DNA of 64,000 nucleotides from Candidatus Zambryskiibacteriota bacterium (GTDB lineage: Bacteria > Patescibacteriota > Minisyncoccia > Phycocordibacterales > WO2-35-19), in assembly GCA_048499675.1 (NCBI GenBank), contig JASNZL010000004.1:28463-92462 (forward strand). The letters run 5' to 3'. The translations under genes and the position numbers were made by a program. Below the pieces are notes generated by a model. It was not told where the DNA came from. It did not search any database and was given only the letters and a program-made list of their open reading frames with translations. This document shows positions 2,823-62,410 of this stretch, one piece after another. Position 1 is the first letter of the stretch. Each line of letters opens with the position of its first letter.

Positions 2823-3257
2823 ATGTCCCATATTTCGAAAAGGAAAATAAAAAAGAAAGATTTTGACAATATTTATAATAAGCTTATAGAAATACTTCTT
2901 AAAAATAAGTCAAAAGACGATTTTAGAAAATTTCTAAAAGAATTCTTTTATACAACCGAGAAAATAATGCTAACCAAAAGATTAGCAATAATTTTTATGA
3001 TTATTGAAAAGATTCCTGATAGAAAAATAGAAAAATTGCTTTTAGTAAGTAGGTCTACAATAAATAGAATAAGAAAAAAATGTGAAGGAAGGGAATATGA
3101 TTACATTCATTCTTTAATACTTAGAAATAGAAAAAGTATGTGGGATATTTTAGGTGTTTTACTTTTTGCTACATTTAATCCACCGGCTAGGGTAGGAATG
3201 GCGAGATATAGATGGTTTGAAGATGCTGAAAAAAAATATGCTTCATTCAAAAAATAG
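2823..3257 (+). CDS. TrpR/YerC-like small DNA-binding protein
   Basis: A 144 aa basic helical protein. The motif LLVSRSTINRIRKK resembles the HTH of the TrpR-related YerC/YecD family. It is flanked by two copies of a palindromic motif. Confidence 0.5.
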   Translation: MSHISKRKIKKKDFDNIYNKLIEILLKNKSKDDFRKFLKEFFYTTEKIMLTKRLAIIFMIIEKIPDRKIEKLLLVSRSTINRIRKKCEGREYDYIHSLILRNRKSMWDILGVLLFATFNPPARVGMARYRWFEDAEKKYASFKK

Positions 3258-3360: not shown

Positions 3361-5763
3361 CTATCGCGCTTCCTCCTCTGCAATTGCAGTAAGCATAGGG
3401 ATTACAGAATCAGGGTTTAGGGAGATTGCTTCGATGTTATTTTGAATTAGGAATCTTGTGAAATCAGGATAATCACTTGGAGCTTGTCCGCAGAAACCAA
3501 TGTATTTGCCTCTTTCTCTACATTTTTGAATTGCCATAGCGACGAGAGTTTTGACGGCTGGATCATTTTCATTTGAAATCGGAGCAACTATCGCAGAGTC
3601 TCTATCAAGTCCGAGAGTAAGTTGAGCTAGGTCATTGCTACCAATTGAGAATCCATCAAAAATGTCTAAGAATTCGTCTGCTCTCAAAACATTGGTTGGA
3701 ATCTCACACATCACGTAAACTTTAAGGCCGTCTTCACCGCGTCTCAAACCTTCTTCAGCCATAATTTCCAAAACTCTTCTGCCTTCGTCCGGTGTCCTGC
3801 AAAATGGAACCATTGGTACAATGTTTTTGATACCAAATTCATCTCTTATTTTTTTGATTGCTTGACACTCCAATCTAAAAGCATCTACGAAATTTGGGTG
3901 AGCGTATCTAGAAGCCCCTCGCCAACCAATCATAGGATTTTCTTCGTCTGGTTCATAATCTTTACCACCAAGAAGGGTAGCGTATTCGTTTGTTTTGAAG
4001 TCACTAAACCTTACAATCACATCACTTGGCCAAAATGCAGAACCAATTTGAGCGATACCTTCTGCCAGTTTATCTACATAAAAGGCGACTTTGTCTTCAT
4101 ACCCCAGAGTTGCTTGTTCAATCTTTTTTTTCAATGTCTCACTCTTTAAGTTATTGAAATCAAGTAATGCTTTTGGATGAACTTTGATGGTAGAGGCAAT
4201 GATAAATTCTTCACGAGCAAGACCGACGCCCTTGTTTGGAATAAAAGAATACATGAAAGCGCTTTCTGGTGAACCAACATTTAGACAAACTTTGGTCCTT
4301 GTCTCAGGTATAGAAGTGATGTCGTGAACGGTCTCTTTCCATTCTAGTTTTCCTTCATAAATCTTACCCGTCGTTCCACTTGATGTGTCTATGGTCAAAA
4401 CATCGCCAGTTTTTATTTTTGATAGAGCATTTCCAGTGCCAATCACAGCAGGAATACCAAGCTCTCGTGAGACAATTGCGGCATGACTCGTCCTACCGCC
4501 TTTTTCTGTAATAATCGCACTAGCAATTTTCATAATTGGTTCCCAGTCAGGATCTGTAATCTCAGTAACCAAAATTTCACCCTTCTCAAATTCGTGGAGT
4601 TTTTTTACATCCGTAATAACACGCGCTTTGCCACTTGCAATCTTTGTACCAACAGCGATACCTGTATCAACAAGTTTACCTTCTGAAACGAGTGCATACT
4701 CTGTGATAGTGAGACGATTCTTTTCTGATTGAACAGTTTCTGGTCTGGCTTGAACAATAAAAAGTTCACCCGTAATACCATCTTTGGCCCATTCAATATC
4801 CATTGGCATATGCTTGCCGGCGTTTTCACTATAATGAGCTTCAATATCCATACCCCAGCGAGCCAAAGTAAGAATTTCATCATTAGTAAGCACATAAACT
4901 TCTCTGTCTTTTTTTAGAACCGGCACTTCTTTTACCGGATTTGTCTTTGTCCCGCTGTAAATCATTTTTGTTTCTTTGCTTCCAATGTCTTTTTTTATGA
5001 TAGGGGAGAAACCATCTTTGAAAGTTTTTTTGAAAACCAAATATGAATCTGGAGTAACCTTACCTTGGACCACCATCTCTCCCAACCCCCACGACGCATC
5101 AATTTCAACCACATCCTTAAAACCACTCTCGGTATCAAGAGTAAACATAACACCAGAAGAACCTTCGTCACTTCTTACCATTTTTTGGACACCTACCGAA
5201 AGAGCCACATCAAAGTGATTGAACCCTTTGTCTACTCTATAAGAAATAGCTCTGTCATTCCAAAGGGAGGCCATCGCTTCTTTGGTAGCTTTCAAAACAT
5301 TTTTGCCACCCACAACATTAAGATATGTTTCGTGCTCTCCTGCAAAACTTGCTCCGGGCAAATCTTCGGCCGTAGCACTACTTCTAACTGCTGTATCAGC
5401 TTCTTTCATGTTATAAGCATTTGATAAGTCGATATAAGCTTTTAGAATTTCTTCTTCTAAATCTTTTGGTAAATCAGAATCTATTATTTTTTCTCTGATT
5501 GCTTTACCAACTTTTTGAAGTTGCTTCACATCATGAGTGTCTAAACCTTCCAAATTCTTTTCTATAAAAGAAGTGAGGCCTTCCTTCTCAATAAAATATC
5601 TATAGGCATATGCCGTGACAGCAAAACCGTTTGGTACCCTAATACCTTTTGGTACAAGAGTTGTATACATTTCGCCGAGAGAGGCATTTTTGCCACCAAC
5701 AAGGGAGACATCCTCTATGTGAAGTTGATCAAACCAGAGTATAAATTTCTTTTCTTTATCCAT
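3361..5763 (-). CDS. ppsA: Phosphoenolpyruvate synthase (pyruvate, water dikinase)
   Basis: 800 aa. It has an N-terminal PPDK_N domain (GGKNASLGEM), a swivel domain GGRTSHAAIVSRELGIPAV, and a C-terminal PEP-utilizers TIM-barrel. Confidence 0.9.
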   Translation of the reverse strand: MDKEKKFILWFDQLHIEDVSLVGGKNASLGEMYTTLVPKGIRVPNGFAVTAYAYRYFIEKEGLTSFIEKNLEGLDTHDVKQLQKVGKAIREKIIDSDLPKDLEEEILKAYIDLSNAYNMKEADTAVRSSATAEDLPGASFAGEHETYLNVVGGKNVLKATKEAMASLWNDRAISYRVDKGFNHFDVALSVGVQKMVRSDEGSSGVMFTLDTESGFKDVVEIDASWGLGEMVVQGKVTPDSYLVFKKTFKDGFSPIIKKDIGSKETKMIYSGTKTNPVKEVPVLKKDREVYVLTNDEILTLARWGMDIEAHYSENAGKHMPMDIEWAKDGITGELFIVQARPETVQSEKNRLTITEYALVSEGKLVDTGIAVGTKIASGKARVITDVKKLHEFEKGEILVTEITDPDWEPIMKIASAIITEKGGRTSHAAIVSRELGIPAVIGTGNALSKIKTGDVLTIDTSSGTTGKIYEGKLEWKETVHDITSIPETRTKVCLNVGSPESAFMYSFIPNKGVGLAREEFIIASTIKVHPKALLDFNNLKSETLKKKIEQATLGYEDKVAFYVDKLAEGIAQIGSAFWPSDVIVRFSDFKTNEYATLLGGKDYEPDEENPMIGWRGASRYAHPNFVDAFRLECQAIKKIRDEFGIKNIVPMVPFCRTPDEGRRVLEIMAEEGLRRGEDGLKVYVMCEIPTNVLRADEFLDIFDGFSIGSNDLAQLTLGLDRDSAIVAPISNENDPAVKTLVAMAIQKCRERGKYIGFCGQAPSDYPDFTRFLIQNNIEAISLNPDSVIPMLTAIAEEEAR

Positions 5764-7244: not shown

Positions 7245-7724
7245 TCACCTAGAGAAATTGTTTGGGGGAAGTTCCTGTTGATACATTTTTTTATTCATCA
7301 TACCCCTACCAAAACCTTTTTTGCTTAAAATTTGGGTTAGACCTATGTAATCAATAACAAAACCTGAGATTAAGATTGATGCTATAAATGCAAGTATTAT
7401 ATATTTAAAATCTAATTTATATGAAAAATTATATCTTTTTACCAAAAATAACCCCACAAAAACAAAAGCTAGGGATAGAATAAAGGCGGACCACGGAAAA
7501 TTATCAATTAATGTTTGAATTTTCATGAGTCTGCCGTATCCAACTGATCTGGTACTCATAAATACAAGGCTTGCAAGATATATCGAGGCGACAAGAGAAA
7601 AAATAATACCCAAAAAAGAAATTAAGGAACCTAGAATGAAGTATATTTTTGGCTTCATTTTAATTTTACCTTCTTTTATTTGACTCATTACGACGTCGTT
7701 TATATTTTTTTGTTCATCATGCAT
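7245..7724 (-). CDS. Membrane protein co-transcribed with the ECF sigma factor; putative anti-sigma factor
   Basis: 159 aa with three or four TM helices. It overlaps the 3' end of the sigma gene by 25 nt and ends with a TGA stop. Confidence 0.4.
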   Translation of the reverse strand: MHDEQKNINDVVMSQIKEGKIKMKPKIYFILGSLISFLGIIFSLVASIYLASLVFMSTRSVGYGRLMKIQTLIDNFPWSAFILSLAFVFVGLFLVKRYNFSYKLDFKYIILAFIASILISGFVIDYIGLTQILSKKGFGRGMMNKKMYQQELPPNNFSR

Positions 7725-8248
7725 ATTTTTTTTAATATCTTTTTTGCTCTATTAATTCTTGTTGCGACCGTACCCATGGGTATTCTTAGAATATCACTTA
7801 TTTCCTCATAACTATTTTGTCCAATATAAAAAAGAAAAAGTGGTTCTCGATACAAAATCGAAATTTGGTCTAGGCAATTATTAATTTCCTCTAGTAATTC
7901 CTTCTTAAAATAATCTTCTTCAATGTCGAGGTCGCTTTCAATATCAAAATCTTCTGGAATATTGGATGTGTTTTTATTTTTTTTAATTAAATTTAAGGCT
8001 TCGTTGTGTACAATTCTATATATCCAGCTTGAAAATTTTCTTTTTATATCAAAACCATTTAGGTTGGTATAGGCTTTAATAAATGACTCCTGTACGATAT
8101 CTATTGATTGATTTTCATCGCGAACTATACTCTTTGCATAACGAATTAGTTTGTTTTGATATCTACTTATAATATAAGAATAGTAATCACTATTTAGAGT
8201 TCGAGTTTTTAGAACTATTTCTTCGTCAGTTAAATTACTTAATTCCAT
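7700..8248 (-). CDS. RNA polymerase sigma factor, ECF (sigma-70 family group 4)
   Basis: Region 2 (VQESFIKAY...YRIVHNEALN) and region 4 (EISDILRIPMGTVATRINRAKKIL) are recognisable. Confidence 0.8.
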   Translation of the reverse strand: MELSNLTDEEIVLKTRTLNSDYYSYIISRYQNKLIRYAKSIVRDENQSIDIVQESFIKAYTNLNGFDIKRKFSSWIYRIVHNEALNLIKKNKNTSNIPEDFDIESDLDIEEDYFKKELLEEINNCLDQISILYREPLFLFYIGQNSYEEISDILRIPMGTVATRINRAKKILKKICMMNKKI

Positions 8249-8282
8249 ATTATAAATTTACAACAAGATTTATAAATACACC

Positions 8283-8310
8283 AAACCCCGTCATGATCGG
8301 GGTTTTTGTG
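8283..8310. terminator. Hairpin aaaccccg-tcatgat-cggggttttt with a T-run, between the 8324 gene and the sigma gene
   Basis: 8 bp GC-rich stem plus a U-tract on the + strand. It may be bidirectional. Confidence 0.5.
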
Positions 8311-8323
8311 TATAATTTTATAA

Positions 8324-12826: not shown

Positions 12827-13906
12827 ATGCACATAAATACCGATTTATTAGAAAAACATTTAAACAACATCCGAGAGCTACAGGCACCAACTGGTCTTTT
12901 TCTTGCCTCTCGCAGTGACGTTAGTACGGGATACAACAAAGCGTGGCTTCGGGATAATTTCTACACCTGTCTGGCTTTTGAGGAAATTAATGATATTGAA
13001 ACTGTAAAAAAAACATGGAAAGCAATACTGCAAATTTTTACAAAGCATAAAGATAAATTGAAGTGGGCTTCTGCAAACAAACCGTACGAAACTTTTCAAT
13101 ACATACATGCTCGCTACAATCCAGAAACATTTGAGGAATTTTGGGAAGAATGGGGGAATAAGCAAAATGATGCAGTTGGAGCCATTCTATTTAAGATTGG
13201 AGGTTTGGAGAAAAAGGATATAAAAATAATAGAGACCGAGGAAGAAAAAGAAGTAGTACAAGAACTAATTAATTATCTTGGATCTATAGAGTATTGGCAT
13301 GATCCAGATAATGGAGTATGGGAAGAATATGAGGAGGTTCATGCTTCTTCTGTTGGGGCTTGTATTGCCGGTCTCCGCACCATATCTAAACTTGGTATTT
13401 TTGATGTTCCCCTTGAGTGGATAGAAAAAGGAGAAGAATCATTAGAACAACTTTTACCAAGAGAATCCAGAACAAAATTCGTTGATTTGGCGCAACTTTC
13501 TCTTATTTATCCATTTAATGTAGTACCAGAAAAAATGGCGCGAGAAATAGTAAGACACTTAGAATACCACCTCGAAAAAGATAGGGGAGTAATAAGATAC
13601 AAAAACGACAGGTATTACAACAAGAATGCTGATGGATATAGTGAAGAGGCGGAATGGTGTTTTGGTTTTCCTTGGCTTTCTATTATTTATGATTACTGGG
13701 CAAATGATAAATTAAAGTTTGGCAATATTACTGATGAAGATGACGCTCGAAAAGCAAAAGAATATTTAGAGAAAAGTGTGAGAACGATACACAATGATAA
13801 AATTCCTGAACTCTATTACTCAGATTCAGAAGTACCAAATGATAATACTCCGCTAGGTTGGGCTGAGTCACTTTTTGTAGTAGCTCTATTAAAATCAGGA
13901 TTGTAA
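12827..13906 (+). CDS. Glycoside hydrolase family 15-like (glucoamylase/trehalase-like alpha/alpha barrel) protein
   Basis: NKAWLRDNFY and HDPDNGVWEEYEE resemble the GH15 catalytic-acid region (xWEE). Confidence 0.5.
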   Translation: MHINTDLLEKHLNNIRELQAPTGLFLASRSDVSTGYNKAWLRDNFYTCLAFEEINDIETVKKTWKAILQIFTKHKDKLKWASANKPYETFQYIHARYNPETFEEFWEEWGNKQNDAVGAILFKIGGLEKKDIKIIETEEEKEVVQELINYLGSIEYWHDPDNGVWEEYEEVHASSVGACIAGLRTISKLGIFDVPLEWIEKGEESLEQLLPRESRTKFVDLAQLSLIYPFNVVPEKMAREIVRHLEYHLEKDRGVIRYKNDRYYNKNADGYSEEAEWCFGFPWLSIIYDYWANDKLKFGNITDEDDARKAKEYLEKSVRTIHNDKIPELYYSDSEVPNDNTPLGWAESLFVVALLKSGL

Positions 13907-13991
13907 ATGTAAAGAATTTTCACTCTCCTTGTAAGAGTTTTAGTTTTGTAATTTTATATATATAAAAGTTAAATAAAAATTCACTATAGGT

Positions 13992-14075
13992 TTATCCACA
14001 CCATAGTAAATTTTGGAATTATTGTGCATTTATCCACAAAGGGAGACGTCAAAATCTACTCAAGGGTTATCCACA
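13992..14075 (+). promoter_or_regulatory. Three consensus DnaA boxes (TTATCCACA) in direct orientation, upstream of the rpoB promoter
   Basis: ttatccaca occurs at 13992-14000, 14030-14038 and 14067-14075. A fourth, one-mismatch box in reverse orientation (ttatcaaca) lies at about 14165-14173. Confidence 0.6.
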
Positions 14076-14082
14076 ATAGATA

Positions 14083-14125
14083 TTGACAATCCTTGACTTA
14101 TTTATCTATTTGTATATACTATAAT
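14083..14125 (+). promoter_or_regulatory. Candidate sigma-70 promoter for rpoBC
   Basis: ttgaca at 14083-14088, ttgact at 14093-14098, then tatact/tataat at 14115-14125. Confidence 0.4.
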
Positions 14126-14360
14126 TTAACTATTGAAGGATGAGTTGTGGCTTGTCAATGGTGGGTGTTGATAACCCGAAAAATGCCTTATTTTTCCGTC
14201 TAATTTAGCGGACTACCATAAGGTAATTACAAGCGAATTCTCTTAATTTTGATTCAACAATCAATATCAGTATAAATATGTAAATACAATGTTCCCCAAT
14301 TAATTGGGGTCAGTTTTGTTTGTGTAATTTTTAATAAATTGAATATTAATAAAATAAAAT

Positions 14361-17300
14361 ATGAGTAACACCAGAACAAAAGATAACCTGACAACCAAGA
14401 CACTGTTTCCCAAAAAATATTTTGGACACTTCAGGGAACCTCTAGCCCCTATGCCGAATCTTGTAGAAGATCAACTAAAATCTTTTAGTTGGCTGATCGA
14501 AAAGGGGATAAAGGAAGTTATGGATGAGTTTGCTGTGATAAACGACTTCACTGGTAAAAAATTTAAATTTGAATTTTTAGGTTTTGAACTTGAAAAACCT
14601 AAATACGATGAATACTATGCAAAAGACAAAAAGTTATCCTATGAAGCGCCACTCAAAGTAAGAGTAAAACTGACAAACAAAACTCTGAATATAGAGAAAG
14701 AACAAGAGTTGTATATCGCAGAATTTCCTATGATGACACCTCATGGCACATTTATAGTAAGCGGTATTGAGAGGGTGATTGTTCCGCAGTTGGCGCGCTC
14801 TTTTGGTGTTTTCTTTACAAATACAGAAATCAAAGGCAAATCTCTATTCGGGGCAAAAATAATACCTTCTAGAGGCGCATGGATTGAAATAGAGACAGAT
14901 GCTGATAAAACTATATATGTAAGAATTGATAGAAAAAGAAAATTTCCGGTTACATCTCTCTTAAGAGCATTTGGAGCTGAAACAGATTCAGAAATATTTG
15001 AACTATTCAAAGATAATCCAGATGCAAAAGAATATATAGAGAAGTCTCTCGCTAAGGATCACGCAAAAACAGCAGATGATTCCTTTGTAGAAATATACAG
15101 AAGACTTCGAGACGGTGACTTGGCAACAGCTGAAAATGCTAGAGAGTTTTTCAAAAACCTTTTTGAAGCAGAAAGATACGACTTACAAAAAGTTGGTAGA
15201 TTTAGATTTAACTCAAGATTTGGTTTACCTATAACAGGAAAAGAAGTAGAGCGAAAGACTCTAAACCTAAATGACATAAAACTTGTTGTTAACCAAATAA
15301 TAAACCTAAACATCACTCCAGGATCTATGGAAGATGACATAGATCACCTTGGAAGCAGAAGAGTGAGATATGTAGGTGAAATGTTACAGCAAAAGTTTAG
15401 AATGGGTATGGCTCAAATCAAGAGAAACATGCAAAACAGAATGTCTACTGTAGATACAGACATTACTCTTCCAGTTCAATTTTTAATGCCAAAACCACTA
15501 CAAGCAAGACTGAAAGAATTCTTCACAACAAACCAACTTTCTCAATTCATGAGTCAGGAAAACGCATTGTCCGAAATTGAGCACTTAAGACTGCTTTCTG
15601 CATTGGGTCCCGGTGGACTAAACAGAAGCCGTGCCGGATTTGAAGTTAGAGATGTGCATCATTCTCACTACGGCAGACTATGTCCAATCCACACTCCAGA
15701 AGGTCCAAACATTGGTCTTATTTTGCACTTGTCATTATATGCAAGAATAAATGAGTTTGGAATGATTGAGACTCCTTATGCAAAAGTTAAAAATGGAGTC
15801 GTAACAAAAGAAATAGAATATTTAAATGCTTTAGAAGAAGAGCGATTTGTTATTGCTCACGCTGCAGTTCCTAGAGATGATAGTGGTAAAATCACACCAG
15901 CAATGGTTGAAGCGAGAGTAAATGGTGAACCTGGATTGGTTGAAAAAAATAAAGTTGATTATATAGATGTTGCCACAAACCAAGCTTTCTCAATTGCAAC
16001 TTCTATGATTCCTTTCTTAAACCATGACGACGCAAACAGAGCACTCATGGGATCAAACATGCAGAAACAAGCAACCCCTTGTGTAGAACCAGAAGCACCT
16101 TTGGTTGCTACTGGAATAGAAAGTTTTGCAATGAGAGACACAGGTAGACTCATTATCGCAGAAAAAGACGGCGAGGTTACAAAAGTTGACGGTTCTACTA
16201 TAGAAACAACTGATTCAAAAGGTGAAAAAACTACTTATAAACTAATAAGTTTCTCAAAAACAAACAATTCGACATGTTTCCACCAGAGACCTATTGTAAA
16301 TATAAACCAAAAAGTAAAGAAAGGTGATGTGCTTGCAGACACACTAACAAGTGAACAAGGTGAGATGGCCTTGGGACAAAATATGCTTGTTGCATTCTTG
16401 TCATGGTCTGGAGCAAACTACGAAGACGCGATAATTATTTCAGAAAGAGTCATAAAAGAAAATAAATTTACTACAGTTCACATAGATGAAGTTGTTGTAA
16501 GTGTAAGAGATACAAAACTTGGACCAGAAGTCACAACTTGCGACATTCCAAACGTAGGTGAAGCAAAATTAAAAAACCTAGCAGAAGATGGAATAATAAG
16601 AATTGGAGCAGAAGTTCATCCTGGAGATATTTTAGTTGGTAAAATCACACCTAAAGGCGAGAGTCAACTTACCCCAGAAGAAAGATTACTTAGATCTCTT
16701 TTTGGAGAAAAAGCTAGAGACGTAAAAGATACTTCAAAGAGAGTTGAGGGTGGTAAAAAAGGAAGGATTATAAATGTCCAAGTTTTCTCAAGAGAAAATG
16801 GCGATAAACTTGAATCTGGAATTATAAAAAGAATCCACATTGAAATCGCTCAATTAAGAAACGTTTCAGTTGGAGACAAGTTGGCCGGAAGACACGGTAA
16901 CAAAGGAGTTATATCAAGAATTCTACCAGTTGAAGATATGCCATATTCTAAAGATGGAACTCCTGTGGATGTTATCTTAACACCACTTGGTGTGCCTTCA
17001 AGAATGAACCTGGGCCAGATTTTGGAATTACACTTGGGACTTGCCGCAAAGACATTGGGCTACCAAGCAATCGTCCCACCATTTGCTGGAGCAACAACAA
17101 AAGAAATTGAGGAAGAATTAAAAAAAGCGGGGCAAAACGAGAACGGAAAAATACAACTATTTGATGGAAGAACAGGTGAAGCGTTTATGCAAGAAACTGC
17201 TGTTGGTTATATGTATATCCTCAAACTTAACCATATGGTTGAAGATAAAATTCACATGCGATCAATCGGACCATATTCTCTCATCACTCAACAGCCACTT

Positions 17301-17588
17301 GGAGGAAAAGCCCAAGGAGGAGGTCAACGATTTGGAGAGATGGAAGTCTGGGCACTTTTGGGACATGGGGCATCACACACACTCCGAGAAATGTTAACGA
17401 TCAAATCAGATGACATATTGGGCAGAAGTGCAGCATTTGATGCAATAGTGAAGGGAGAAAGAATAAAAATAGATAACATCCCTGCCGCCTTTAATGTTTT
17501 GATTAGCAACCTAAGAGGATTATCGCTAAATGTTGAACTTGAAAACAAAAATGGTCAAAAATTAGAAGCAAACGAGAAAATTAATTAA
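14361..17588 (+). CDS. rpoB: DNA-directed RNA polymerase subunit beta
   Basis: 1075 aa carrying the canonical beta-subunit motifs. Confidence 0.97.
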   Translation: MSNTRTKDNLTTKTLFPKKYFGHFREPLAPMPNLVEDQLKSFSWLIEKGIKEVMDEFAVINDFTGKKFKFEFLGFELEKPKYDEYYAKDKKLSYEAPLKVRVKLTNKTLNIEKEQELYIAEFPMMTPHGTFIVSGIERVIVPQLARSFGVFFTNTEIKGKSLFGAKIIPSRGAWIEIETDADKTIYVRIDRKRKFPVTSLLRAFGAETDSEIFELFKDNPDAKEYIEKSLAKDHAKTADDSFVEIYRRLRDGDLATAENAREFFKNLFEAERYDLQKVGRFRFNSRFGLPITGKEVERKTLNLNDIKLVVNQIINLNITPGSMEDDIDHLGSRRVRYVGEMLQQKFRMGMAQIKRNMQNRMSTVDTDITLPVQFLMPKPLQARLKEFFTTNQLSQFMSQENALSEIEHLRLLSALGPGGLNRSRAGFEVRDVHHSHYGRLCPIHTPEGPNIGLILHLSLYARINEFGMIETPYAKVKNGVVTKEIEYLNALEEERFVIAHAAVPRDDSGKITPAMVEARVNGEPGLVEKNKVDYIDVATNQAFSIATSMIPFLNHDDANRALMGSNMQKQATPCVEPEAPLVATGIESFAMRDTGRLIIAEKDGEVTKVDGSTIETTDSKGEKTTYKLISFSKTNNSTCFHQRPIVNINQKVKKGDVLADTLTSEQGEMALGQNMLVAFLSWSGANYEDAIIISERVIKENKFTTVHIDEVVVSVRDTKLGPEVTTCDIPNVGEAKLKNLAEDGIIRIGAEVHPGDILVGKITPKGESQLTPEERLLRSLFGEKARDVKDTSKRVEGGKKGRIINVQVFSRENGDKLESGIIKRIHIEIAQLRNVSVGDKLAGRHGNKGVISRILPVEDMPYSKDGTPVDVILTPLGVPSRMNLGQILELHLGLAAKTLGYQAIVPPFAGATTKEIEEELKKAGQNENGKIQLFDGRTGEAFMQETAVGYMYILKLNHMVEDKIHMRSIGPYSLITQQPLGGKAQGGGQRFGEMEVWALLGHGASHTLREMLTIKSDDILGRSAAFDAIVKGERIKIDNIPAAFNVLISNLRGLSLNVELENKNGQKLEANEKIN

Positions 17589-17594
17589 AAAAAT

Positions 17595-20500
17595 ATGCAA
17601 AATAGAATTCAAAACATAAATGATTTCGACATAATGAAGCTCTCGTTAGCTTCTCCTGAAGCAATAAAAAATTGGTCTTTTGGCGAAATTACAAAACCAG
17701 AAACAATAAACTACAGAACACAAAGAAGTGAAAGAAACGGTCTATTTGATGAAAAAATATTTGGTCCAGACAAAGATTATGAGTGCTACTGTGGTAAATA
17801 CAAAGGCATAAGATATAAAGGAATTGTCTGTGAAAAATGCGGAGTAGAAATCACTAGATCAATTGTGAGGAGAGAAAGAATGGGTCACATCGATTTGGCG
17901 GCACCCGTGTCACACATCTGGTTTCTAAAGAGTATGCCATCAAGAATAGCTCTTTTGCTTGGTACAACCACTTCTGAGGTTGAAAAGGTAATATACTTTG
18001 CTGGATACATAATCACAAAAGTTTCAAACGAAGAGAAACAAACTATCCTAAAAGAACTAGACATTGAGTTCAAATCAAAAATAAAACTTTTAACTGATGA
18101 AAAACATAAGGAAGCCCTAAAAGAAAAATTAGTCGAAACAAAAAGAGAAATTGACGGTATAGTAGAAGGAAGAGTTATAGATGAGGTTGTTTATCATAAC
18201 TACTCAGTTAAATATGGTACTTTGTTTGAGGCAGAAATTGGAGCTGAAGCTATTTACAATATATTCAAGACAATTGACCTAAACAAACTTGAAGCAAACA
18301 TAAAAGCAGAACTTGAAAAATCAAAATCTGCAGACACAACAAAAATAGCAAAGAGACTTTCTGTTGTTCAAGCAATGATTAGATCAAACACTAGACCAGA
18401 GTGGATGTTTTTGACTAAGATTCCAGTTATTCCTCCAGCAATGAGACCAATGGTTCCACTAGACGGAGGAAGATACGCAACAAGCGATGTAAACGATCTT
18501 TATAGAAGAGTTATAAACAGAAATAACCGATTGAAAAAACTAAAAGAGATAAGCGCTCCAGATGTAATCCTCAGAAACGAAAAAAGAATTCTACAAGAAG
18601 CCGTAGACGCACTCATAGATAACTCAATCAGACACAGTAGTAACCAGCAACAAAATAGTCAAGCAAACAAAGCTAGAGACTTGAAATCCCTTGCTGATAA
18701 CCTAAAAGGTAAGCGAGGACTATTTAGACAAAACCTACTCGGAAAAAGAGTTGATTACTCTAGTAGGTCTGTTATTGTTGTTGGACCTAGTTTGAAACTA
18801 CACCAATGCGGTTTACCAAAACATATGGCACTTGAATTGTTTAAACCTTTTGTTGTATCAGAACTTTTGAAACAGGAACTTGCTTACAACGTAAGAGGAG
18901 CTAGCAGATTAATTGAAGACAAAATACCAGAAGTTTGGGCGATTCTTGAGGATATAATTAAGAAAAAATATGTATTACTAAACCGAGCACCAACTTTGCA
19001 CAGATTGGGCATACAAGCTTTTAAACCTATACTTATTGAAGGAAACGCTATTCAAGTACATCCCCTAGTTTGTAATGCGTTTAACGCTGACTTTGATGGT
19101 GACCAGATGGCTGTTCACGTACCACTTTCACCGGAGGCGCAACTTGAAGCTGAGATGATAATGTCATCTGACAAAAACATCTTAAAACCAGGTAGTGGTG
19201 ATTCTACAATATCTAACAAACCACTAGACATAATTCTTGGATGTTACTGGATGACCAAGGATGTATCAGGAGAAAAAGGTGAGGGCATGATATTTGAAAG
19301 TCCAAACAGTGCAATTACTGCACATGATTTTGACATTGTAGATTTCAGAGCAAAAATAAAGGTTTTGGGTACCGATTCTCCAAAATACGCAAAATTTGAA
19401 GGGCAAGTTTTTGAAACATCAGTAGGAAGATTATTGTTCAACTCAGTATTACCAAACGACTATCCATTTATTAACGGAGAAATAAACAAGAAAAAACTCT
19501 CTTCTATTATCGACGAATTAATCCAGCTCTATGGAATTGAATCAATTCCACCAATAATGGATAAAATTAAAGACTTCGGCTTCAAATACGCAACAGTATC
19601 AGGAACAACTTGGAGCATTGGCGATATTAACGTGCCAGAAAACAAAAAAGAAATCATTGAAGAAGCTAAAGAAAAAGTTTCTCTGATTCAGGAACAATAT
19701 GAATCAGGACTTCTATCACATAATGAGAAAAGAGCAAAAAATATAGAGAGATGGACACTTGTGAAAGATGAAATTCAAAAATCACTCCAAGATTCTATGG
19801 ACAAAAAAGGTTCGGTCTTTGATCTTGTAAAATCAGAAGCTAGAGGTTCAATGGGTCAGCTAACTCAAATGGCCGGAATGAAAGGTCTTATTGTTAACAC
19901 AGCAGGAGAAACTATTGATTTCCCAATTACTTCTTCATATAAAGAAGGGTTAAATCCGATTGAATACTTCATTACCACTCACGGCGCCAGAAAAGGTTTG
20001 TCAGATACAGCTCTTAATACAGCAAAAGCTGGTTACCTAACTAGAAAACTTTTTGATGTGGCACAAGATTGTATTATCCCCGAGGAAGATTGTGGTAGCA
20101 AGGAAGGTATATTACTAAGCAATGTTACATCTTCGGGTATCGAAGTTTCTATTGCTAAAATTTCAAAAGGAAGATTTCTTGCAGAAGATCTAAAAGATGA
20201 GCAGGGGAACGTACTCTTTAAGAGGAATCATTTTATCACTAGAGATGACGCGACTAAAATCGAGGAGAGTGGTATCAAGAGTTTAGTTGTCAGATCTCCT
20301 CTTACATGTAAAACCAACAATGGAGTTTGTGTACACTGTTATGGTTCAGACTTAGGAAAAAATAAAATCATCGAAGTTGGAGAAGCGGTGGGTACAGTTG
20401 CCGCCCAAGCCATTGGTGAACCGGGAACTCAGCTTACAATGAGAACCTTCCATGCCGGAGGAACAGCTTCAGTTGGCGGAGACATTACACAAGGTCTTCC

Positions 20501-21251
20501 GAGAGTTGAAGAAGTTTTTGAAAATAGATCACCAAAGAACCCAGCAGTAGTAGCTAGAGTCGACGGAATGGTAAGTGAGATAAAAATGGAAGGTAAAGAA
20601 AAAATAATAATCTTATTACCTGAACATGAGAATAAATCAAAAAATAATTCTGATACAGAATACAGTGTAAATTACAATCGTGTTGTCTTAGTTAAGAAAG
20701 GAGATAATGTTAAAAAAGGAGATATATTAACTGACGGTTCAGTAAATCTTGATGAATTGTTCAAATACGGTGGAAAAGAAAAAACACAGAATTATATAAT
20801 TCATGAAATTACCAAAATTTACGAGCTTCAAGGTGAACCTGTTTCTAGAAAACACATTGAAGTTATAATTAAACAAATGTTCTCTAGAATTAAAATACTT
20901 TCTCCAGGTGATACCAAATTCTCACAAGGAGACATAGTTCCATTAGCAGATATTATAGAAGAAAACGAAATAATGAAAGCAGAAGGAAAAGAAGAAGCAA
21001 AATCAGAGCCTCTACTTCTTGGAATTACAGAAGTGTCACTTTCAAGAACAAGCTTCCTGTCATCTGCTTCATTCCAACACACTACAAGAATGTTGATTCA
21101 AAACGCCCTACGAGGAACCGAAGATAATCTAAAAGGTCTAAAAGAAAATGTTATTATCGGTAGATTAATCCCAGCAGGATCTAACTTCAAAGGAAGTGGC
21201 AAGTATGAAATGCTGAACAAATTAAAAGAAGAGTTAGATAGAGCAAATTAA
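17595..21251 (+). CDS. rpoC: DNA-directed RNA polymerase subunit beta'
   Basis: 1218 aa. It has the Zn finger [20 protein letters not shown] and [12 protein letters not shown], the catalytic triad. Confidence 0.97.
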
Positions 21252-21334
21252 AAGATTTGGAATTACACCTTTACTGACGGAAGTCCTGCTCTAAAACTTA
21301 GCCCCTTGTTTTAATTTTAATCTCCTAACCATAT

Positions 21335-23011
21335 ATGACTTCTATTGTAGAACAAATAAAAGAAAGGTTAGACATAGTTGATGTAATTTCGTCATATATA
21401 AAAGTAGAAAAAGCTGGAATAAACTGGAAAGCAAAGTGCCCATTTCACAACGAAAAAACCCCTTCTTTCTTCATATCCCAAACAAGACAAAATTTCTTCT
21501 GCTTTGGGTGCCATGAAAAAGGAGATGTGATATCCTTTGTAGAAAAATATGAAGGGCTTGATTTCAAAGGTGCTCTTGAAAACCTAGCAAATAGAGCTGG
21601 AATAGAAATAAAAAAACAAGACTACAAAAAGACTATTGAAAACAGAGATAAGTTGTTTGAAGCAATGGAGCAAGCAACGATATCTTTTGAAAACAACCTA
21701 GAAAAAGAAGATAAAATAAAAAAGTATCTTTTAGATAGAGGACTAAATACTAAGACAATAAAAGAATGGCGACTCGGTTACGCTAAGGATGAGTGGAGAG
21801 CTCTACTTTCAAATTTAGAAGGTAAAGGATTTACAAAAAAAGAACTTCTAGATGTTGGGTTATTAAAAAAAGTACTAAATGAAGAGAAGTACTACGACAC
21901 ATTCAGAGGAAGAATAATGTTTCCAATGTTTGATAATGCAAACAGAGTGATTGCATTTTCAGGAAGAACCTTAAAGAAAGACGAAAAAACACCAAAATAC
22001 TTAAACTCACCCGAAACAAGTCTTTTTTATAAATCAGAAGTTTTGTATGGATTCAACATTGCCAAAAATTACATTAGAAAACTAGACTACACCGTCATTG
22101 TAGAAGGTCAAATGGACTTAATAATGTCCCATCAATCTGGAGTACATAACACAGTTGCTTCCTCAGGTACAGCATTAACAGAAATTCATTTAAAAAAATT
22201 ACAGAGATTATCCAATAGAATAATAATTGCTTATGATGCCGATAAAGCAGGAGAAAAAGCCGGAGAAAGTGCAGCCTTAATGGCTACGTCACTTGGGATG
22301 GAAGTAAAAATTGCACTACTAAAAGAAGGTGAGGATCCAGCCTCTCTAATACAAAAAAGTGCAGAGGATTGGAAAAAAGTATTAAGGGAATCAAATTTTT
22401 ACTCTGAATACATATTAGACAAAGCAACTTCTATGCAAAATGAGAACCTTACAATGAAATATGTTTTCAGTAATGTACTACCTTTTGCATCTAGAATCAA
22501 AAGCGATATTGAAAAAGAAAAATATATCAAAAAGATTGCATCTAGACTGCGAGTATCAGAAGATAACGTATGGAAAGATCTTCAAAAAATAATAAATAAC
22601 GAAGGAAATGAAGAAAAAGAATATGATATAAAAAAAGAAAATAATCAATCAAATCTAGAAAGAATTCTTGTTGGCATAATATTATTACAAGAATCAATTA
22701 ACAAAGATACCAGTAAATTAAGAACAGAACTTAAAAGAATTTTAGGGAACGATAAAGCAGAAGATATAATCTCAAAGTACGAAGATGAAAAAGATTTATT
22801 AATTTTTGAACTTGAAAAATATAATAATTCAAGAGATTTTGATGATATAGGAAAAGAGGTTATTCAAAGGTTAGAATTAAACTTTTTAAAAGATGAAACG
22901 AGAAGATATGCTGTAGAAATGGACAACAAGAATATTTCTAAAGAAGAGTATAAAAAAATTGAAAATGAGTTTAACAAAATCCAAAACAGGATAAGAGAAT
23001 TAAAAGATTAA
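21335..23011 (+). CDS. dnaG: DNA primase
   Basis: The CPFHNEKTPSF...CFGC Zn ribbon and the TOPRIM segment EGQMDLI are present. Confidence 0.9.
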   Translation: MTSIVEQIKERLDIVDVISSYIKVEKAGINWKAKCPFHNEKTPSFFISQTRQNFFCFGCHEKGDVISFVEKYEGLDFKGALENLANRAGIEIKKQDYKKTIENRDKLFEAMEQATISFENNLEKEDKIKKYLLDRGLNTKTIKEWRLGYAKDEWRALLSNLEGKGFTKKELLDVGLLKKVLNEEKYYDTFRGRIMFPMFDNANRVIAFSGRTLKKDEKTPKYLNSPETSLFYKSEVLYGFNIAKNYIRKLDYTVIVEGQMDLIMSHQSGVHNTVASSGTALTEIHLKKLQRLSNRIIIAYDADKAGEKAGESAALMATSLGMEVKIALLKEGEDPASLIQKSAEDWKKVLRESNFYSEYILDKATSMQNENLTMKYVFSNVLPFASRIKSDIEKEKYIKKIASRLRVSEDNVWKDLQKIINNEGNEEKEYDIKKENNQSNLERILVGIILLQESINKDTSKLRTELKRILGNDKAEDIISKYEDEKDLLIFELEKYNNSRDFDDIGKEVIQRLELNFLKDETRRYAVEMDNKNISKEEYKKIENEFNKIQNRIRELKD

Positions 23012-23042
23012 ATATAAATATTTTATTAGTATAATTTAACAC

Positions 23043-24263
23043 ATGGCAAACAAAACAAAAAAAGATAAATTCAAAAAAATCAAAAAAGAAAGACTAAAAA
23101 AAGTCAAAACTAAAGTTGTGCAAAAAAAGAAAGCTACAGATAAAAAAACAAAAAAAGATTTAAAACAAAAAAAGACTTCCAAGAGCACTACCAAAACACT
23201 GCCAGAAGAAGTAATAAAAAAAGACAAGTTGATTGCAAAAGGAAAAGATCGTGGGTTTATTACCTATGACGAAATAATGAAAGAGTTTCCCACAATCGAA
23301 GAAGACGTATTACTTTTAGAAAAAATATATGATGATTGTGCAACCTTGGGTATTGATATTCTTGAAGGAGGCAAATTATTAGAAGATACATTAACAGTAA
23401 AAGGTAAAGAGTATTTCAAAGAAGAAGCTTCTCATGATTCTATTCAGATGTACCTAAAAGAAATTGGTCAACATTCCTTAATTTCTGGCTCACAGGAAAA
23501 GGAACTGGCAAAAAGAATAGCAAATGACGATGCAGAAGCAAGAAACATCTTAGCAAAAGCAAACCTTAGACTAGTCGTTTCAATCGCAAAAAAATATGTA
23601 GGTAGAAGTTCAGACTTAACACTACTTGACCTTATACAGGAAGGTAATTTAGGCCTATTTAAAGCAGTAGATAAATTTGATCATACCAAAGGTTACAAGT
23701 TTTCAACTTATGCAACTTGGTGGATTAGACAAGCAATTACAAGAGCTCTTGCAGATCAATCGAGAACAATTAGAGTTCCAGTGCATATGGTTGAAACAAT
23801 TGCAAAATACAAACAAGTAGTAAGGAGACTCTCTCAAGATTTGGGTAGAGACCCTCTGCCAGAAGAAATCGCGGTAGAGATGGGTCTAGAACCAGATAAA
23901 ATATATATGATAGAAAAGATTGATCAGGGTACGGTTTCGCTCGAGACTCCAGTAGGTGATGATGATGATACCAAATCTACTTTAGGTGATTTCATTGCGG
24001 ATGATAAAATACTTTCTCCAGAGCAAGAATCAAACAGGAGAATAATAAGAGACCAACTATCAGAAATCCTAGAAGATTTACCACCAAAAGAAAGGAGAAT
24101 TATTGAGATGAGAAATGGTCTTCAAGATGGGGTCTACCACACACTAGAAGATGTCGGAAAAGAATTTGGAGTGACGAGAGAGCGTATTAGACAAATCGAA
24201 GCTAAAGCCCTAGAAAAAATGCGTCAACACGACAAAGCAAAAAGATTGCAACATTTTCTTTAA
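23043..24263 (+). CDS. rpoD: RNA polymerase sigma factor RpoD, with a Lys-rich low-complexity N-terminus
   Basis: Region 2.4 ([13 protein letters not shown]) and region 4 ([23 protein letters not shown]) are recognisable. The N-terminal 60 aa is K/T-rich. Confidence 0.95.
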
Positions 24264-24547: not shown

Positions 24548-25540
24548 TTTGAAGTAGGACAGTTATAATTAATTTTTAGCAAAAATTAAATTTTAATTGT
24601 CATGAAAAAGAAATATTGTCATTTGTCGTTTGAAGAGAGATTTGCAATTGAAGTGATGTATCGAAAAGGCACGGAGATTCGCTCCATTGCAGAGTTTTTG
24701 GATCGTAGTCCAAATACAGTGAGCCGAGAGATACGGAAACATAGTGTTAATGGTGCATATGAGGCCAGGAAAGCTAAGCAAAAATCATTAGCAGAAAGAT
24801 GGAGAGCAAAAGCTCAATGTCTCAAAGTAGCAATGAACAGTTTCCTTTGCGTTTTCGTTGAAGAGAAACTTCAAAACAAGTGGTCACCAAAACAAATTAG
24901 TGGGTATTTGAAGAGAGAGTACGGCATCATTTGCTCTAGCAAAGCCATATACAAATTTGCTGAGAGCCGTGGATTAGATCACTTGCTTTTCTGGGGCTGG
25001 AACAACATGAAAGCTTGTCGCAAGAGATACAAATGGAAAACACCCAAAGATGGAAGGAAATATATTGGACAAAGACCAGAAAGAAAAGAAGTTGGTCATC
25101 TAGAGATGGACTTCATTGTCTCAAAAGAAAGTAGCGGGTTCTCTGATTGAATCGTTTTAACAAAAAAAACTTGGGTGGGAAACTACCCCAACAGAAAACA
25201 CTGACACTATTCGTCTTACTTGCTTTCCTCCTGTTCACTCGGATTTGTTTTTGAAGTCGATCACCACGGACAATGATCAGCATTCTATCTGGAAGGCAGA
25301 TTCTCTCAACACTGTCATATCTTTACACATCCATACCATTCTTGGGAAAAGGGATTAGTGGAGAATACTAACCGATGGATCAGATGTTTTGTACCTAAAA
25401 GGAGAAATATCGAGTCAGTGACTGAAGAAGAATTGAAAGGGATTCACACCTTCTTGAACGACCGACCGAGAGAATGTATTGGATTTAGATTACCAACAAG
25501 TTATTATTATGAGTTAACATCTGTCCTACTTGAGGGGTAG
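24548..25540 (+). mobile_element. Degraded IS30-family insertion sequence
   Basis: Imperfect terminal inverted repeats share the core aagtaggacag (24552-24562) and ctgtcctactt (25521-25531). They bracket a transposase frame with IS30 N-terminal HTH and C-terminal motifs. Local GC is higher than in the flanks. Confidence 0.65.
24602..25540 (+). pseudogene. IS30-family transposase interrupted by three in-frame TGA codons and shortened in its core
   Basis: The N-terminus MKKKYCHLSFEERFAIEVMYRKG...SPNTVSREIRKH is the IS30 HTH. GHLEMDF corresponds to GHWEGD. The C-terminus HPYHSWEKGLVENTNRWIRCFVPKR...LNDRPRECIGFRLP corresponds to the NENTNGLIRQYFPKG...LNNRPRK motif. It has the same frame throughout, with stop codons at 25148, 25202 and 25274. 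Confidence 0.7.
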
Positions 25541-48633: not shown

Positions 48634-51015
48634 ATGATTTATACAAAACATTTTAAAGAATTAAATAAGAACGATGCTAATATTGCTGGGGGCAAGGGAG
48701 CATCATTGGGGGAGATGACTCAGTCCGGCATACCGGTGCCCGAGGGCTTTGTTGTCTTATCAACTACATTTGACCATTTCCTCAAAGAAACTGATCTTGT
48801 TCAAGAAATTGATGCGATTTTAAAAACTGTGGACCACAAAGCAATTCACACTGTAGATTCTGCTTCTGAAAAAATAAGGGGACTCATTGAAAGCAGAGAA
48901 GTGCCGGACGATATAGCAAAAGAAATAATGAGCGACTTTGAAAAGCTCGGTGCCGAATTTGTGGCGGTGAGATCATCGGCCACAGCCGAAGATGGTGCTG
49001 AACACGCTTGGGCAGGTCAGCTTGAAAGTTTTCTTAATACTGACAAAAATTCACTGTTGGACCATGTTCGCAAATGTTGGGGTTCACTATTCACTCCTCG
49101 CGCTATTTTTTACCGATTTGAAAAAGATTTGAGCGGGACAGAAATCTCTGTCGCTGTTGTTGTCCAAAAAATGATTCAATCTGAAGTTTCGGGTATTGCC
49201 TTCTCAGTTCACCCTATTACCGAAGACTACAATCAACTCATAATTGAAGCGGGGTATGGCTTGGGCGAAGCGATTGTCTCTGGCTCAATTACTCCTGACT
49301 CTTATGTGGTAGAAAAGGGGCCGTTGCAAATCATTGACCAAAATATTGCGGAGCAGAAGAAAGCTTTAGTAAAAGAAGGAGCGAGCAACAATTGGGTGAT
49401 GGTAGAAAAAGAAAAAAGAGAACAACAAAAGCTCTCGGGAAAAGAAATTACAGAGCTCTCAAAAATTATTATACAAATAGAAAAACATTATGGTTTCCCT
49501 TGTGACATAGAATGGGCTTTAGAGGGTGGCAAATTTTATATTGTCCAAAGTAGACCCATCACTACACTTGCTCCGAAAAAAGAATTAAAAACTTTAATAA
49601 ATACTGAAGACTATCATTTTTTTGGTCTATGGAAATGCAACCTTTTCTCTGATTGGTACTGGTCTAAATGGCTTGTTCCTGAATATGCTAAAAGAATTGG
49701 TCTCGATCTAAATGATAGCGGTATTTTTGTAATAAACGGAGGATATTTCTTCACAAAAAAATCTGTTATAGAAACAATCCGCGAGTACGCAAAAAATATT
49801 ATTGAGAGTAAGGATAAGGAAAAATTGGCTCTCCTTAGGAAACTAACAAATGAAATTTATGACACTTCTCTTGCTGTTTCAGAAAAAATAAGCGAGGCAG
49901 AGCCGAATGAAATAAATGTTAGAGAAATGGCTGAGTCGGGTCAGCAAATAATGTTTCCATGGTGTTTCGGGTATATTCTTTCTGAAGTTTTTGATGAATT
50001 TCTTATTCCTGCTGCAGACAAAGCTGGAATTAATAGAGAAGATATTTCTGCTCTTATTCCACCATTTAAAACTCCTCTTATTGAAGCCCAAGATAATTTA
50101 CGCTTAATAAAAAAAGTTTTGGAAGATAAGGGTCATTGGAATCTACTTCTTGAAGATTCCACCAAAGCTATTAATGAAATTCAGAAAGATGAGCAGGTGT
50201 CCAAATTGATTCAAGAGCATTCATTTAAATATGGATGGACTAATATTATGAACCTTGTAGGTGAGGACCCAAATATTGAGCAAGTTATTGATCAGATAAC
50301 CCACATTCCATCTCAACAAACTCATATCACAAACTCTGTAGCGGACGAAGATTTTGAATTTCTAATTCAATGTGCTTCAACCACCGCATATCTCCGTCAA
50401 ACTGGTGTTGAATATTTCTCTATATACTCACGATACGCACAAAAACTTTTAGGATTAGCAGCAAATAAAATTGGTATTACTTACCGAGAACTTCTTGATC
50501 TCAATCTCAACGAAATTATTGATGGAGTTAATGGAAAAGATGTTAAAGAAATTGTAAAAAGACGAGCAAATGATAACTGGGCTATCTATTCAATGCTTAA
50601 CAACGAAGAGCCAGTTGTGTTTGATGACCCTGAAGTAATAAAACAGCTTGTTTCTGTAATGGTGCCAAAAGCCGAGGCTTCAGAAGATGGAACTATCAAG
50701 GGACAGATTGGTAATAAAGGATCAGGGAAAGGAAAAGTAAAAATTATTCTTTCTCTGGATGATTTTCACAAAATGGAACCTGGAGCCGTATTGGTTACTA
50801 CAATGACTACGCCAGATTACGTTCCGTTAATGCAAAAAGCTTCTGCAATTATTACTGATATTGGAGGTTTGCTTTGTCATGCGGCAATCATTTCCCGCGA
50901 GTTAAATATTCCTTGTGTGATTGGTACAAAATTTGCAACTCAACTCCTAAAAGATGATATGGAAGTGGAAGTGGATGCGGATAATGGAGTAGTTAAGATA
51001 TTAGCTAAAAATTAA
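48634..51015 (+). CDS. PEP synthase / rifampin-phosphotransferase-like dikinase (PPDK_N ATP-binding domain, central domain, and C-terminal phosphohistidine swivel domain), with no PEP-utilizers TIM-barrel
   Basis: The N-terminus NDANIAGGKGASLGEM...VAVRSSATAEDG is PPDK_N. The C-terminus AVLVTTMTTPDYVPLMQKASAIITDIGGLLCHAAIISRELNIPCVIGT is the swivel domain with the His. Confidence 0.75.
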   Translation: MIYTKHFKELNKNDANIAGGKGASLGEMTQSGIPVPEGFVVLSTTFDHFLKETDLVQEIDAILKTVDHKAIHTVDSASEKIRGLIESREVPDDIAKEIMSDFEKLGAEFVAVRSSATAEDGAEHAWAGQLESFLNTDKNSLLDHVRKCWGSLFTPRAIFYRFEKDLSGTEISVAVVVQKMIQSEVSGIAFSVHPITEDYNQLIIEAGYGLGEAIVSGSITPDSYVVEKGPLQIIDQNIAEQKKALVKEGASNNWVMVEKEKREQQKLSGKEITELSKIIIQIEKHYGFPCDIEWALEGGKFYIVQSRPITTLAPKKELKTLINTEDYHFFGLWKCNLFSDWYWSKWLVPEYAKRIGLDLNDSGIFVINGGYFFTKKSVIETIREYAKNIIESKDKEKLALLRKLTNEIYDTSLAVSEKISEAEPNEINVREMAESGQQIMFPWCFGYILSEVFDEFLIPAADKAGINREDISALIPPFKTPLIEAQDNLRLIKKVLEDKGHWNLLLEDSTKAINEIQKDEQVSKLIQEHSFKYGWTNIMNLVGEDPNIEQVIDQITHIPSQQTHITNSVADEDFEFLIQCASTTAYLRQTGVEYFSIYSRYAQKLLGLAANKIGITYRELLDLNLNEIIDGVNGKDVKEIVKRRANDNWAIYSMLNNEEPVVFDDPEVIKQLVSVMVPKAEASEDGTIKGQIGNKGSGKGKVKIILSLDDFHKMEPGAVLVTTMTTPDYVPLMQKASAIITDIGGLLCHAAIISRELNIPCVIGTKFATQLLKDDMEVEVDADNGVVKILAKN

Positions 51016-62105: not shown

Positions 62106-62114
62106 TTATCCACA
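62106..62114 (+). promoter_or_regulatory. Isolated consensus DnaA box TTATCCACA
   Basis: Exact 9-mer in the 460 bp intergenic region between 61951 and 62411. Confidence 0.3.
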
Positions 62115-62377
62115 GGTACATAAAATGGATTGAATAATTTTTAATTAACCACTTCCCTCGGACTAAGTCTTCCTCAAAATATTTTAGTGATTATTTTTAT
62201 TTTATTTATTAAATCAGAATTAAATTTTGGAGAGAGTAGGGCTCCACGAAGAAAGTCTCTGAGATTATAAGAATCTCAAATATCTAAACTAGAATTTTGT
62301 TTCTTATTACTTCCCCACTCGAGCGTACTCTCAATTGATTGGCATACTTGAAAGTAATAGTATTTTTTGCAAACAAA

Positions 62378-62408
62378 AATTCCGCAGTAAGGCGGAATTT
62401 TTGTTAAG
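62378..62408. terminator. Bidirectional intrinsic terminator (aaaaattccgc-agtaag-gcggaatttttg)
   Basis: An 8-9 bp stem flanked by A- and T-runs, immediately 3' of the minus-strand gene that ends at 62411. Confidence 0.6.
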
Positions 62409-62410
62409 TA

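Follow-up and report, generated by a model that had tools for sequence, protein, structure and literature searches.

Why do perfect DnaA boxes, the binding sites of the bacterial replication initiator, lie in front of the genes for RNA polymerase? The question is raised by a 64-kb stretch of Candidatus Zambryskiibacteriota DNA (contig JASNZL010000004.1; hereafter the window), in which the nine-nucleotide sequence TTATCCACA, the canonical highest-affinity DnaA box (PMC2533591), occurs on the + strand at 13992-14000 (box 1), 14030-14038 (box 2) and 14067-14075 (box 3), with spacings of 38 and 37 bp. All three copies fall in the 454-bp spacer (13907-14360) between a GH15-family gene (12827-13906) and rpoB (14361-17588). 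A preliminary description of this DNA had left the choice between a DnaA-controlled promoter and part of a replication origin. Comparison with related loci supports the former, as a DnaA-type box is enriched 30-40 times at a fixed position upstream of the rpoB promoter in two sets of relatives, and box 3 is kept in the closest of them. We consider it likely that the three boxes are DnaA operators on the promoter of the rpoB-rpoC-dnaG-rpoD gene cluster.

A DnaA-type box at rpoB promoters

The three direct copies of TTATCCACA were recovered at exactly the positions described before. Across the window the sequence has four matches against 0.61 expected, a number that was reached in 0/100 dinucleotide-preserving shuffles, and in the density scan that had been proposed as a check, run here with TTATNCACA on the whole 64 kb, the rpoB spacer ranks first. 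The spacer is indeed AT-rich (27.5% GC against 34.2% for the window), and a promoter scan bore out the -35 and -10 elements ascribed to rpoB: a sigma-70-type core promoter on the + strand (14093-14120; 10/12 matches) consists of the -35 TTGACT (14093-14098), a 16-nt spacer and the -10 TATACT (14115-14120), and its -35 and TATACT align and are conserved in relatives. Transcription would start near 14127-14129, which places the centres of boxes 1, 2 and 3 at about -132, -94 and -57, respectively. Box 3, the promoter-proximal putative operator, ends 17 nt before the -35 and 7 nt before a distal TTGACA hexamer (14083-14088, + strand; 10 nt upstream of the -35). The genes behind this promoter, assigned with Pfam, are rpoB, rpoC (17595-21251), dnaG (21335-23011) and rpoD (23043-24263), all on the + strand (14361-24263), and they are probably co-transcribed because the gaps between them are short.

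The comparison covered two independent sets of 80 rpoB loci each, the first from species-representative genomes and the second from metagenome contigs. By RpoB identity (65-85%), the closest relatives are all Paceibacteria/Parcubacteria of the candidate phyla radiation (CPR), the nearest being a Zambryskibacteria metagenome-assembled genome (MAG) and Paceibacterota MAGs, and an exact look-up of the RpoB protein returned a single match, a Logan contig of 4 kb that comes from the same organism and adds no flanking sequence; the organism is present in SRR21762701. We defined a DnaA-type box as TTATCC[A/C]CA in either orientation and a relaxed box as NTATCCMCA or TNATCCMCA. As positional landmark for the box counts we used a leader motif with the consensus GATTGAGTT, which occurs class-wide (76/80 and 73/78 loci with ≤2 mismatches) and in most loci about 14-18 nt after the end of the -10.

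In the first set, perfect boxes have a density of 0.43/kb in the 500 bp upstream of rpoB and 0.011/kb elsewhere, the latter being the compositional expectation, and a relaxed box is found within 100 bp upstream of the leader motif in 29/76 loci where 0.93 would be expected. In the second set a box stands upstream of the motif in 23/73 loci (0.85 expected), and the 110-bp stretch before the motif holds 16 of the 36 perfect boxes. When 7-mers were ranked without bias by their enrichment upstream of the -35, the top words were ATCCACA, GTGGATA, GGATAAC and ATCCCCA, ahead of the -35 words. A weight matrix derived from the same sites, and therefore partly circular, placed 32/76 promoters above the 99th percentile of control windows.

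The box keeps to a narrow position. In both orientations, its start is mostly found some 70 nt ahead of the leader motif, and the gap between the end of the box and the -35 is bimodal, with values of 5-8 and 15-19 nt that are one helical turn apart. Box 3, starting 71 nt upstream of the motif, occupies this class-wide enrichment position. In the alignment of its subclade the site is perfect, with the same position and orientation, in loci L082-L085 (82-85% RpoB identity), and it reads TTATCCCCA in L002 and CTATCCACA in L003, with one mismatch each. Judged from these alignments, box 3 is the class-wide conserved site, so that the spacer has the two features expected of a DnaA-regulated promoter, a box directly adjacent to the promoter and a conserved box position. 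Only this genome has the extra boxes 1 and 2. Both lie within about 110 bp of additional spacer, a stretch that L083-L085 do not have, no counterpart of box 1 was found in L082-L085, L035, L002 or L003, and among 143 promoters the window alone has three boxes, its relatives having one or none. The promoters share a further regularity in the doubled -35: a second TTGACA lies 9-12 nt upstream of the true one in many rpoB promoters (some relatives have three hexamers), the doubled TTGACA of the window is kept in L002, L003 and L083-L085, and a distal TTGAC is present in 11/51 promoters with a box vs 4/96 without.

The same box at lexA promoters

Perfect boxes outside the rpoB promoter are also often intergenic (9/17 and 8/16 in the two sets, against about 12% of non-coding DNA). 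A LexA-like gene (192 aa, Peptidase_S24) lies 2-4 kb upstream of rpoB in eight loci (L004, L006, L007, L009, L011, L015, L098 and L113), and all eight upstream regions carry the Gram-positive-type SOS box GAAC-N4-GTTC. In 7/8 of them, (N)TATCCACA is found 27-36 nt upstream of the SOS box and just before a TTGAC -35. Because the same box stands before the -35 at rpoB and at lexA promoters, the motif behaves like the operator of one regulator that is shared by at least two promoter types, the lexA type being part of the DNA-damage response. The lexA promoter and the start of the open reading frame (ORF) are about 270 nt apart, or about 400 nt in L015.

Which protein binds the boxes

We infer that DnaA is the binder and that its binding changes transcription. 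By far the commonest form of the site matches the canonical high-affinity DnaA 9-mer exactly. The site lacks symmetry, it occurs in both orientations, and tandem pairs 11-12 bp apart are present in L004, L057 and L053; for these reasons it fits a monomeric binder such as domain IV of DnaA and not a dimeric regulator. Paceibacteria encode DnaA and DnaN (PMC12102498). A viral_contigs scan with a DnaA alignment gave a single match, a proteobacterial dnaA with 59% GC.

Several observations weigh against this assignment. A recognisable box is found in only about 35-50% of promoters, and the site of box 3 holds no box in L035, the closest relative in the genome collection. The variant TTATCCCCA, found at least 8 times, departs from the E. 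coli box at one of its important positions; a somewhat altered specificity, or another protein, could be the reason. In addition, the spacing of 37-38 bp puts neighbouring boxes on opposite faces of the helix, an arrangement that is not ideal for a DnaA filament.

An alternative is that TTATCC[A/C]CA is the operator of a different transcription factor of Paceibacteria and that its likeness to a DnaA box is coincidental. The frequency of sites with C at position 7 (8/30) speaks for such a factor, as does the fact that the sites are single and promoter-locked in the manner of ordinary operators. However, coincidence is hard to reconcile with a commonest form identical to the canonical 9-mer, the absence of a dyad partner is unlike typical dimeric regulators, tandem pairs occur, and the co-regulated targets (the primase operon and lexA) suit a replication-linked regulator. 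We regard this alternative as improbable, albeit the best of those considered. A TrpR-like ORF of the window (2823-3257) was rejected as a candidate binder, as it gave no DnaA-domain-IV signal and nothing ties it to the site.

How DnaA could act on the promoter

Box 3 stands for the class-wide element: one asymmetric box of high affinity that precedes the -35 of a near-consensus promoter by one or two helical turns. DnaA bound to it would modulate the recruitment of RNA polymerase, so that the synthesis of the core polymerase, the primase and the main sigma factor would depend on how much initiator is present and in which state. Boxes 1 and 2, as additions of this genome, would raise the local occupancy by DnaA and could nucleate an oligomer that reaches the promoter. 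A second layer of control would reside in the transcript, in the form of a conserved structured leader that ends in a terminator-like hairpin.

DnaA is known to activate or repress from promoter-adjacent boxes, as at nrdAB, dnaA, sda, ywlC and yydA (PMC8203912, PMC2533591), and at nrdAB a low occupancy by DnaA can stabilise RNA polymerase, whereas high DnaA-ATP can exclude it (PMC8203912). Our best guess is an occupancy-dependent control similar to that of E. coli nrdAB, with net repression at high DnaA-ATP, an outcome to which we give only a slight edge over activation. Repression would agree with the slightly better core elements of promoters with a box (11.2 vs 10.6, p=0.015) and with the overlap between box and core promoter in some relatives, where it was found between the -35 and the -10 (L025, L027) or at the -10 itself (L020, L026). 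Against it, a fixed helix-face position upstream of the -35 is as typical of activators as of repressors.

The arrangement resembles E. coli nrdAB in that high-affinity DnaA boxes directly precede the core promoter of a gene on which DNA synthesis depends. It differs in its putative target, a cluster for polymerase core, primase and sigma factor, in its CPR host and in its conserved unit, which is one box in either orientation. With the autoregulated dnaA promoter it has in common the 9-mer boxes at promoters, and the link to lexA recalls the role of DnaA in replication stress; in contrast to that system, dnaA lies outside the window and the regulon is deduced here solely from motif positions. 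A literature search returned no report of DnaA boxes at an rpoB promoter or of regulation by DnaA in CPR bacteria. DnaA as a transcription factor is well known, and what would be new, to judge from this search, is the conserved box on a promoter of RNA polymerase core genes. If DnaA binds there, the initiator would be coupled directly to the supply of RNA polymerase, primase and main sigma factor in bacteria with tiny genomes, forming a very short circuit between replication and transcription capacity in a group for which few regulators are known. More broadly, DnaA may be a global regulator in Paceibacteria, and perhaps in the wider CPR, that directly gates the synthesis of the whole machinery for transcription initiation and priming (rpoB-rpoC-dnaG-rpoD) and of LexA through one phased high-affinity box and a hitherto undescribed structured leader/attenuator RNA, the three-box array of the window being a strengthened form of this link; we hold this wider proposal with somewhat less than even confidence.

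A different use of the same protein would be that the array serves mainly as a DnaA sink or as a site of DnaA inactivation, with little direct effect on rpoB transcription. Boxes 1 and 2 could be read in this way, being far upstream of the promoter and confined to this genome. Moreover, in B. subtilis DnaA binds stably to intergenic clusters outside oriC (yqeG-sda, ywlC, yydA, ywcI-vpr, gcp-ydiF, jag-thdF), which are variably conserved (PMC2533591). Those clusters, however, themselves regulate the adjacent genes, and they comprise 4-10 boxes with a mean spacing of 4-21 bp (PMC2533591). The boxes studied here are like them in being intergenic, of the TTATCCACA type, outside oriC and variably kept among relatives, and unlike them in numbering three perfect copies 37-38 bp apart, in being reduced to a single box in most relatives and in having other neighbour genes. 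A site like E. coli datA requires at least 4-5 closely spaced boxes for stable binding at high occupancy, joined in datA itself by an IHF site, against three boxes with an average spacing of about 37 bp in the window. What the class conserves is one box, which is not enough for titration and whose place is set by the promoter geometry, and the same geometry appears again at lexA promoters. We find titration or inactivation as the main function quite unlikely; it would be compatible with boxes that act as operators on the rpoB promoter.

The question of a replication origin

The proposal that the spacer is part of an origin, either oriC itself or half of a bipartite origin in which DnaA binds the three boxes and opens an AT tract, is not supported by the comparison. 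It draws on three perfect boxes in one orientation at the highest box density of the window, on an AT-rich tract and on the gene-orientation switch and cumulative GC-skew minimum of the window, both of which lie near 8.7 kb, about 5 kb upstream of the spacer. An adjacent AT-rich unwinding element had been named as something to look for, and a tract that might serve as one exists: 40 bp at 13938-13977, 15 bp upstream of box 1, are 92.5% A+T, which is among the top 0.35% of 40-bp windows in the 64 kb. AT-rich spacers are common in a genome of 34% GC, and a run of [TA]A[GA] triplets, the DnaA-trios that go with unwinding elements in many phyla, was found next to none of the boxes.

The genes expected at an origin were likewise not found. 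Among the sizeable ORFs of the window, Pfam identified no dnaA, dnaN, gyrB, recF, rpmH, rnpA or parAB. With the DnaA and DnaN proteins of E. coli as queries, tblastn searches of the window and of 160 related loci yielded a single match at E<1, which is due to chance. Within 10 kb of rpoB, neither dnaA nor dnaN was found in the 160 relatives. Locating these two genes in the genome had been suggested as a test; within the window and these loci, the result counts against an origin. In a survey of Patescibacteria, dnaA, dnaN, rpmH and rnpA were found to cluster near virB4 in Paceibacteria (PMC12102498). In the window and in 64/74 relatives, rpoB and the gene before it run in the same direction, so that no strand switch occurs at the spacer, and the skew follows the coding strand, since genes on the - strand inside the + block match the coding-strand skew left of the switch. 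Third-position skew by strand shows a weak change of sign with the wrong polarity for an origin; we do not rely on it because of the few genes involved and the codon bias of rpoBC.

Finally, the boxes themselves are not those of an oriC. There are three of them, in a single orientation and 37-38 bp apart, without mixed affinities, mixed orientation or closely spaced low-affinity sites, and the cluster is not kept at this locus in relatives, which have one box or none (L035 has none); box 3 follows the promoter rather than the genes around it. The likeness to bacterial oriC is limited to perfect DnaA boxes that adjoin an AT-rich tract, whereas the number and orientation of boxes, the missing DnaA-trios, the missing linkage to dnaA and dnaN, the missing strand switch and the lack of conservation all differ. 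A chromosomal origin at the spacer is unlikely, marginally more so than a DnaA sink. On a practical matter, triplets of perfect DnaA boxes in CPR assemblies should not be taken as origins for genome rotation or for estimates of replication rate.

How boxes 1 and 2 arose is a separate matter. A repeat search (family D2) showed that the 15 nt upstream of box 1 resemble those upstream of box 3, and the corresponding 75-bp units align better than shuffles (p=0.001 with the boxes, p=0.055 with the shared box masked); an old local tandem duplication behind the two boxes is therefore possible. In the other unit no box corresponds to box 2, which must thus have been gained or kept separately. That all three boxes are a mere by-product of the duplication of a 75-bp promoter segment, only the ancestral one being functional, is very improbable, given that the similarity is marginal once the box is masked and that the flanks are by now near-random whereas all three 9-mers are still perfect.

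The leader RNA of rpoB

The preliminary description counted a fourth, near-consensus box in inverted orientation downstream of the promoter. A site with one mismatch, TTATCAACA, does exist on the - strand at 14166-14174, the only further one of this kind, and it shares letters with both the 5' arm and the loop of a hairpin in the predicted transcript (14164-14187, + strand; GGTGTT, 12-nt loop, AATGCC). As a DnaA box it fares less well: since it sits inside a transcribed hairpin and close relatives read TGTTTATAA, TGTTTATAT or TGTTGATAT at this position, it is probably leader sequence. RNAalifold did not call this second leader hairpin; in relatives the corresponding arms are GCTGTT...AACAGC, and by our reading of the alignment they differ from those of the window by one compensatory exchange of G-C to C-G.

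The hairpin follows another one at 14129-14162 (+ strand), whose arms ACTATTGA (14129-14136) and TCAATGGT (14155-14162) enclose GGATGAGTT (14138-14146). In the close subclade, RNAalifold predicted four helices with 5 compensatory pairs in total, the helix of this first hairpin among them, and we extend its stem only tentatively to the whole class. A search for the best stem across the class gave a mean of 5.96 bp vs 5.47 bp in shuffled controls, which is not significant, and the minimum free energy z-scores of the leaders average -0.12. RNAalifold found no structure in 17 'CTTC'-type sequences, in which MAFFT misplaced the arms, and a descriptor search for further copies of the leader hairpin was too permissive, with matches mostly in coding sequence.

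Downstream, many loci share the order of leader motif, GGATTACAAGG and a terminator-like hairpin with a U-run shortly before the ATG of rpoB. In the window, a terminator scan placed this last element at 14294-14320 on the + strand, about 40 nt before the ATG, where the hairpin CCCCAATTAATTGGGG (14294-14309) is followed by a U-rich run. It is kept in the subclade with one compensatory pair, equivalent hairpins with U-runs are visible in many relatives, and we describe it as a putative attenuator. A terminator-like element upstream of rpoB is also known from E. coli, in the rplL-rpoB attenuator. Here, rpoB has a promoter of its own, and its leader is unlike any Rfam family: Rfam 15 gave no match at the gathering score in the window and, at E<10, only chance-level matches in 13850-14450. 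The leader is possibly a new attenuator or riboregulator of the RNA polymerase operon. It may be a more novel object than the boxes, and as a conserved rpoB leader with a terminator it offers a separate lead towards a new cis-regulatory RNA.

Other features of the window

The junction of rpoBC with dnaG-rpoD, without rplKAJL upstream, had been noted. The gene order is as stated, but it is the rule in the class and no peculiarity of this genome, as rpoB-rpoC-dnaG-rpoD was found in 55 of the 64 related loci whose flanks were long enough; trmD usually directly precedes it. Co-location of dnaG and rpoD has been described before and taken to suggest coordinated control of priming and transcription initiation (PMC10532879); the pair is shared with that system, following rpoBC here instead of rpsU. 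Just downstream of rpoD, a 182-aa ORF (24602-25150) matches the N-terminal 146 of 267 positions of an IS30-family transposase model (HTH_38) and looks like a truncated remnant of an insertion sequence.

At the other end of the rpoB spacer, a weak hairpin (13922-13948, + strand; ACTCT-7 nt-AGAGT, then a T-rich run) was read from the sequence after the stop codon of the GH15-family gene. It is a possible terminator of that gene and was not called by the terminator scan, which demands at least 3 G-C pairs. The spacer does not behave as a mobile element in that no further copies were found in the window or in the fetched loci.

Two other sites of the box type lie far from rpoB. The isolated perfect box reported at 62106-62114 on the + strand is indeed an exact TTATCCACA, in the extended consensus AGTTATCCACAGG, and lies in a 460-bp non-coding stretch without a credible ORF. 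TTGAAT follows 16 nt downstream and a strong hairpin terminator is found at 62376-62404; a search of 61.9-62.4 kb against Rfam at E<10 gave nothing meaningful, and the stretch 62106-62410 may encode an unannotated small RNA or a long untranslated region. The second site, TTATACACA, fits TTATNCACA and is found on the - strand (within 8249-8323), 59 nt upstream of a gene for a sigma factor of the extracytoplasmic function type (7700-8248, - strand) and near the switch in gene orientation (~8.7 kb).

ARAGORN found no tRNA or transfer-messenger RNA in the window. The window also encodes phosphoenolpyruvate (PEP)-utilising enzymes, two full-length ones of the PPDK_N type and two shorter ORFs with the mobile PEP-utilizers domain only (3361-5763, 48634-51015, 51812-52945 and 52955-53962 for the four together), a number of paralogues that is unusual for a small CPR genome.

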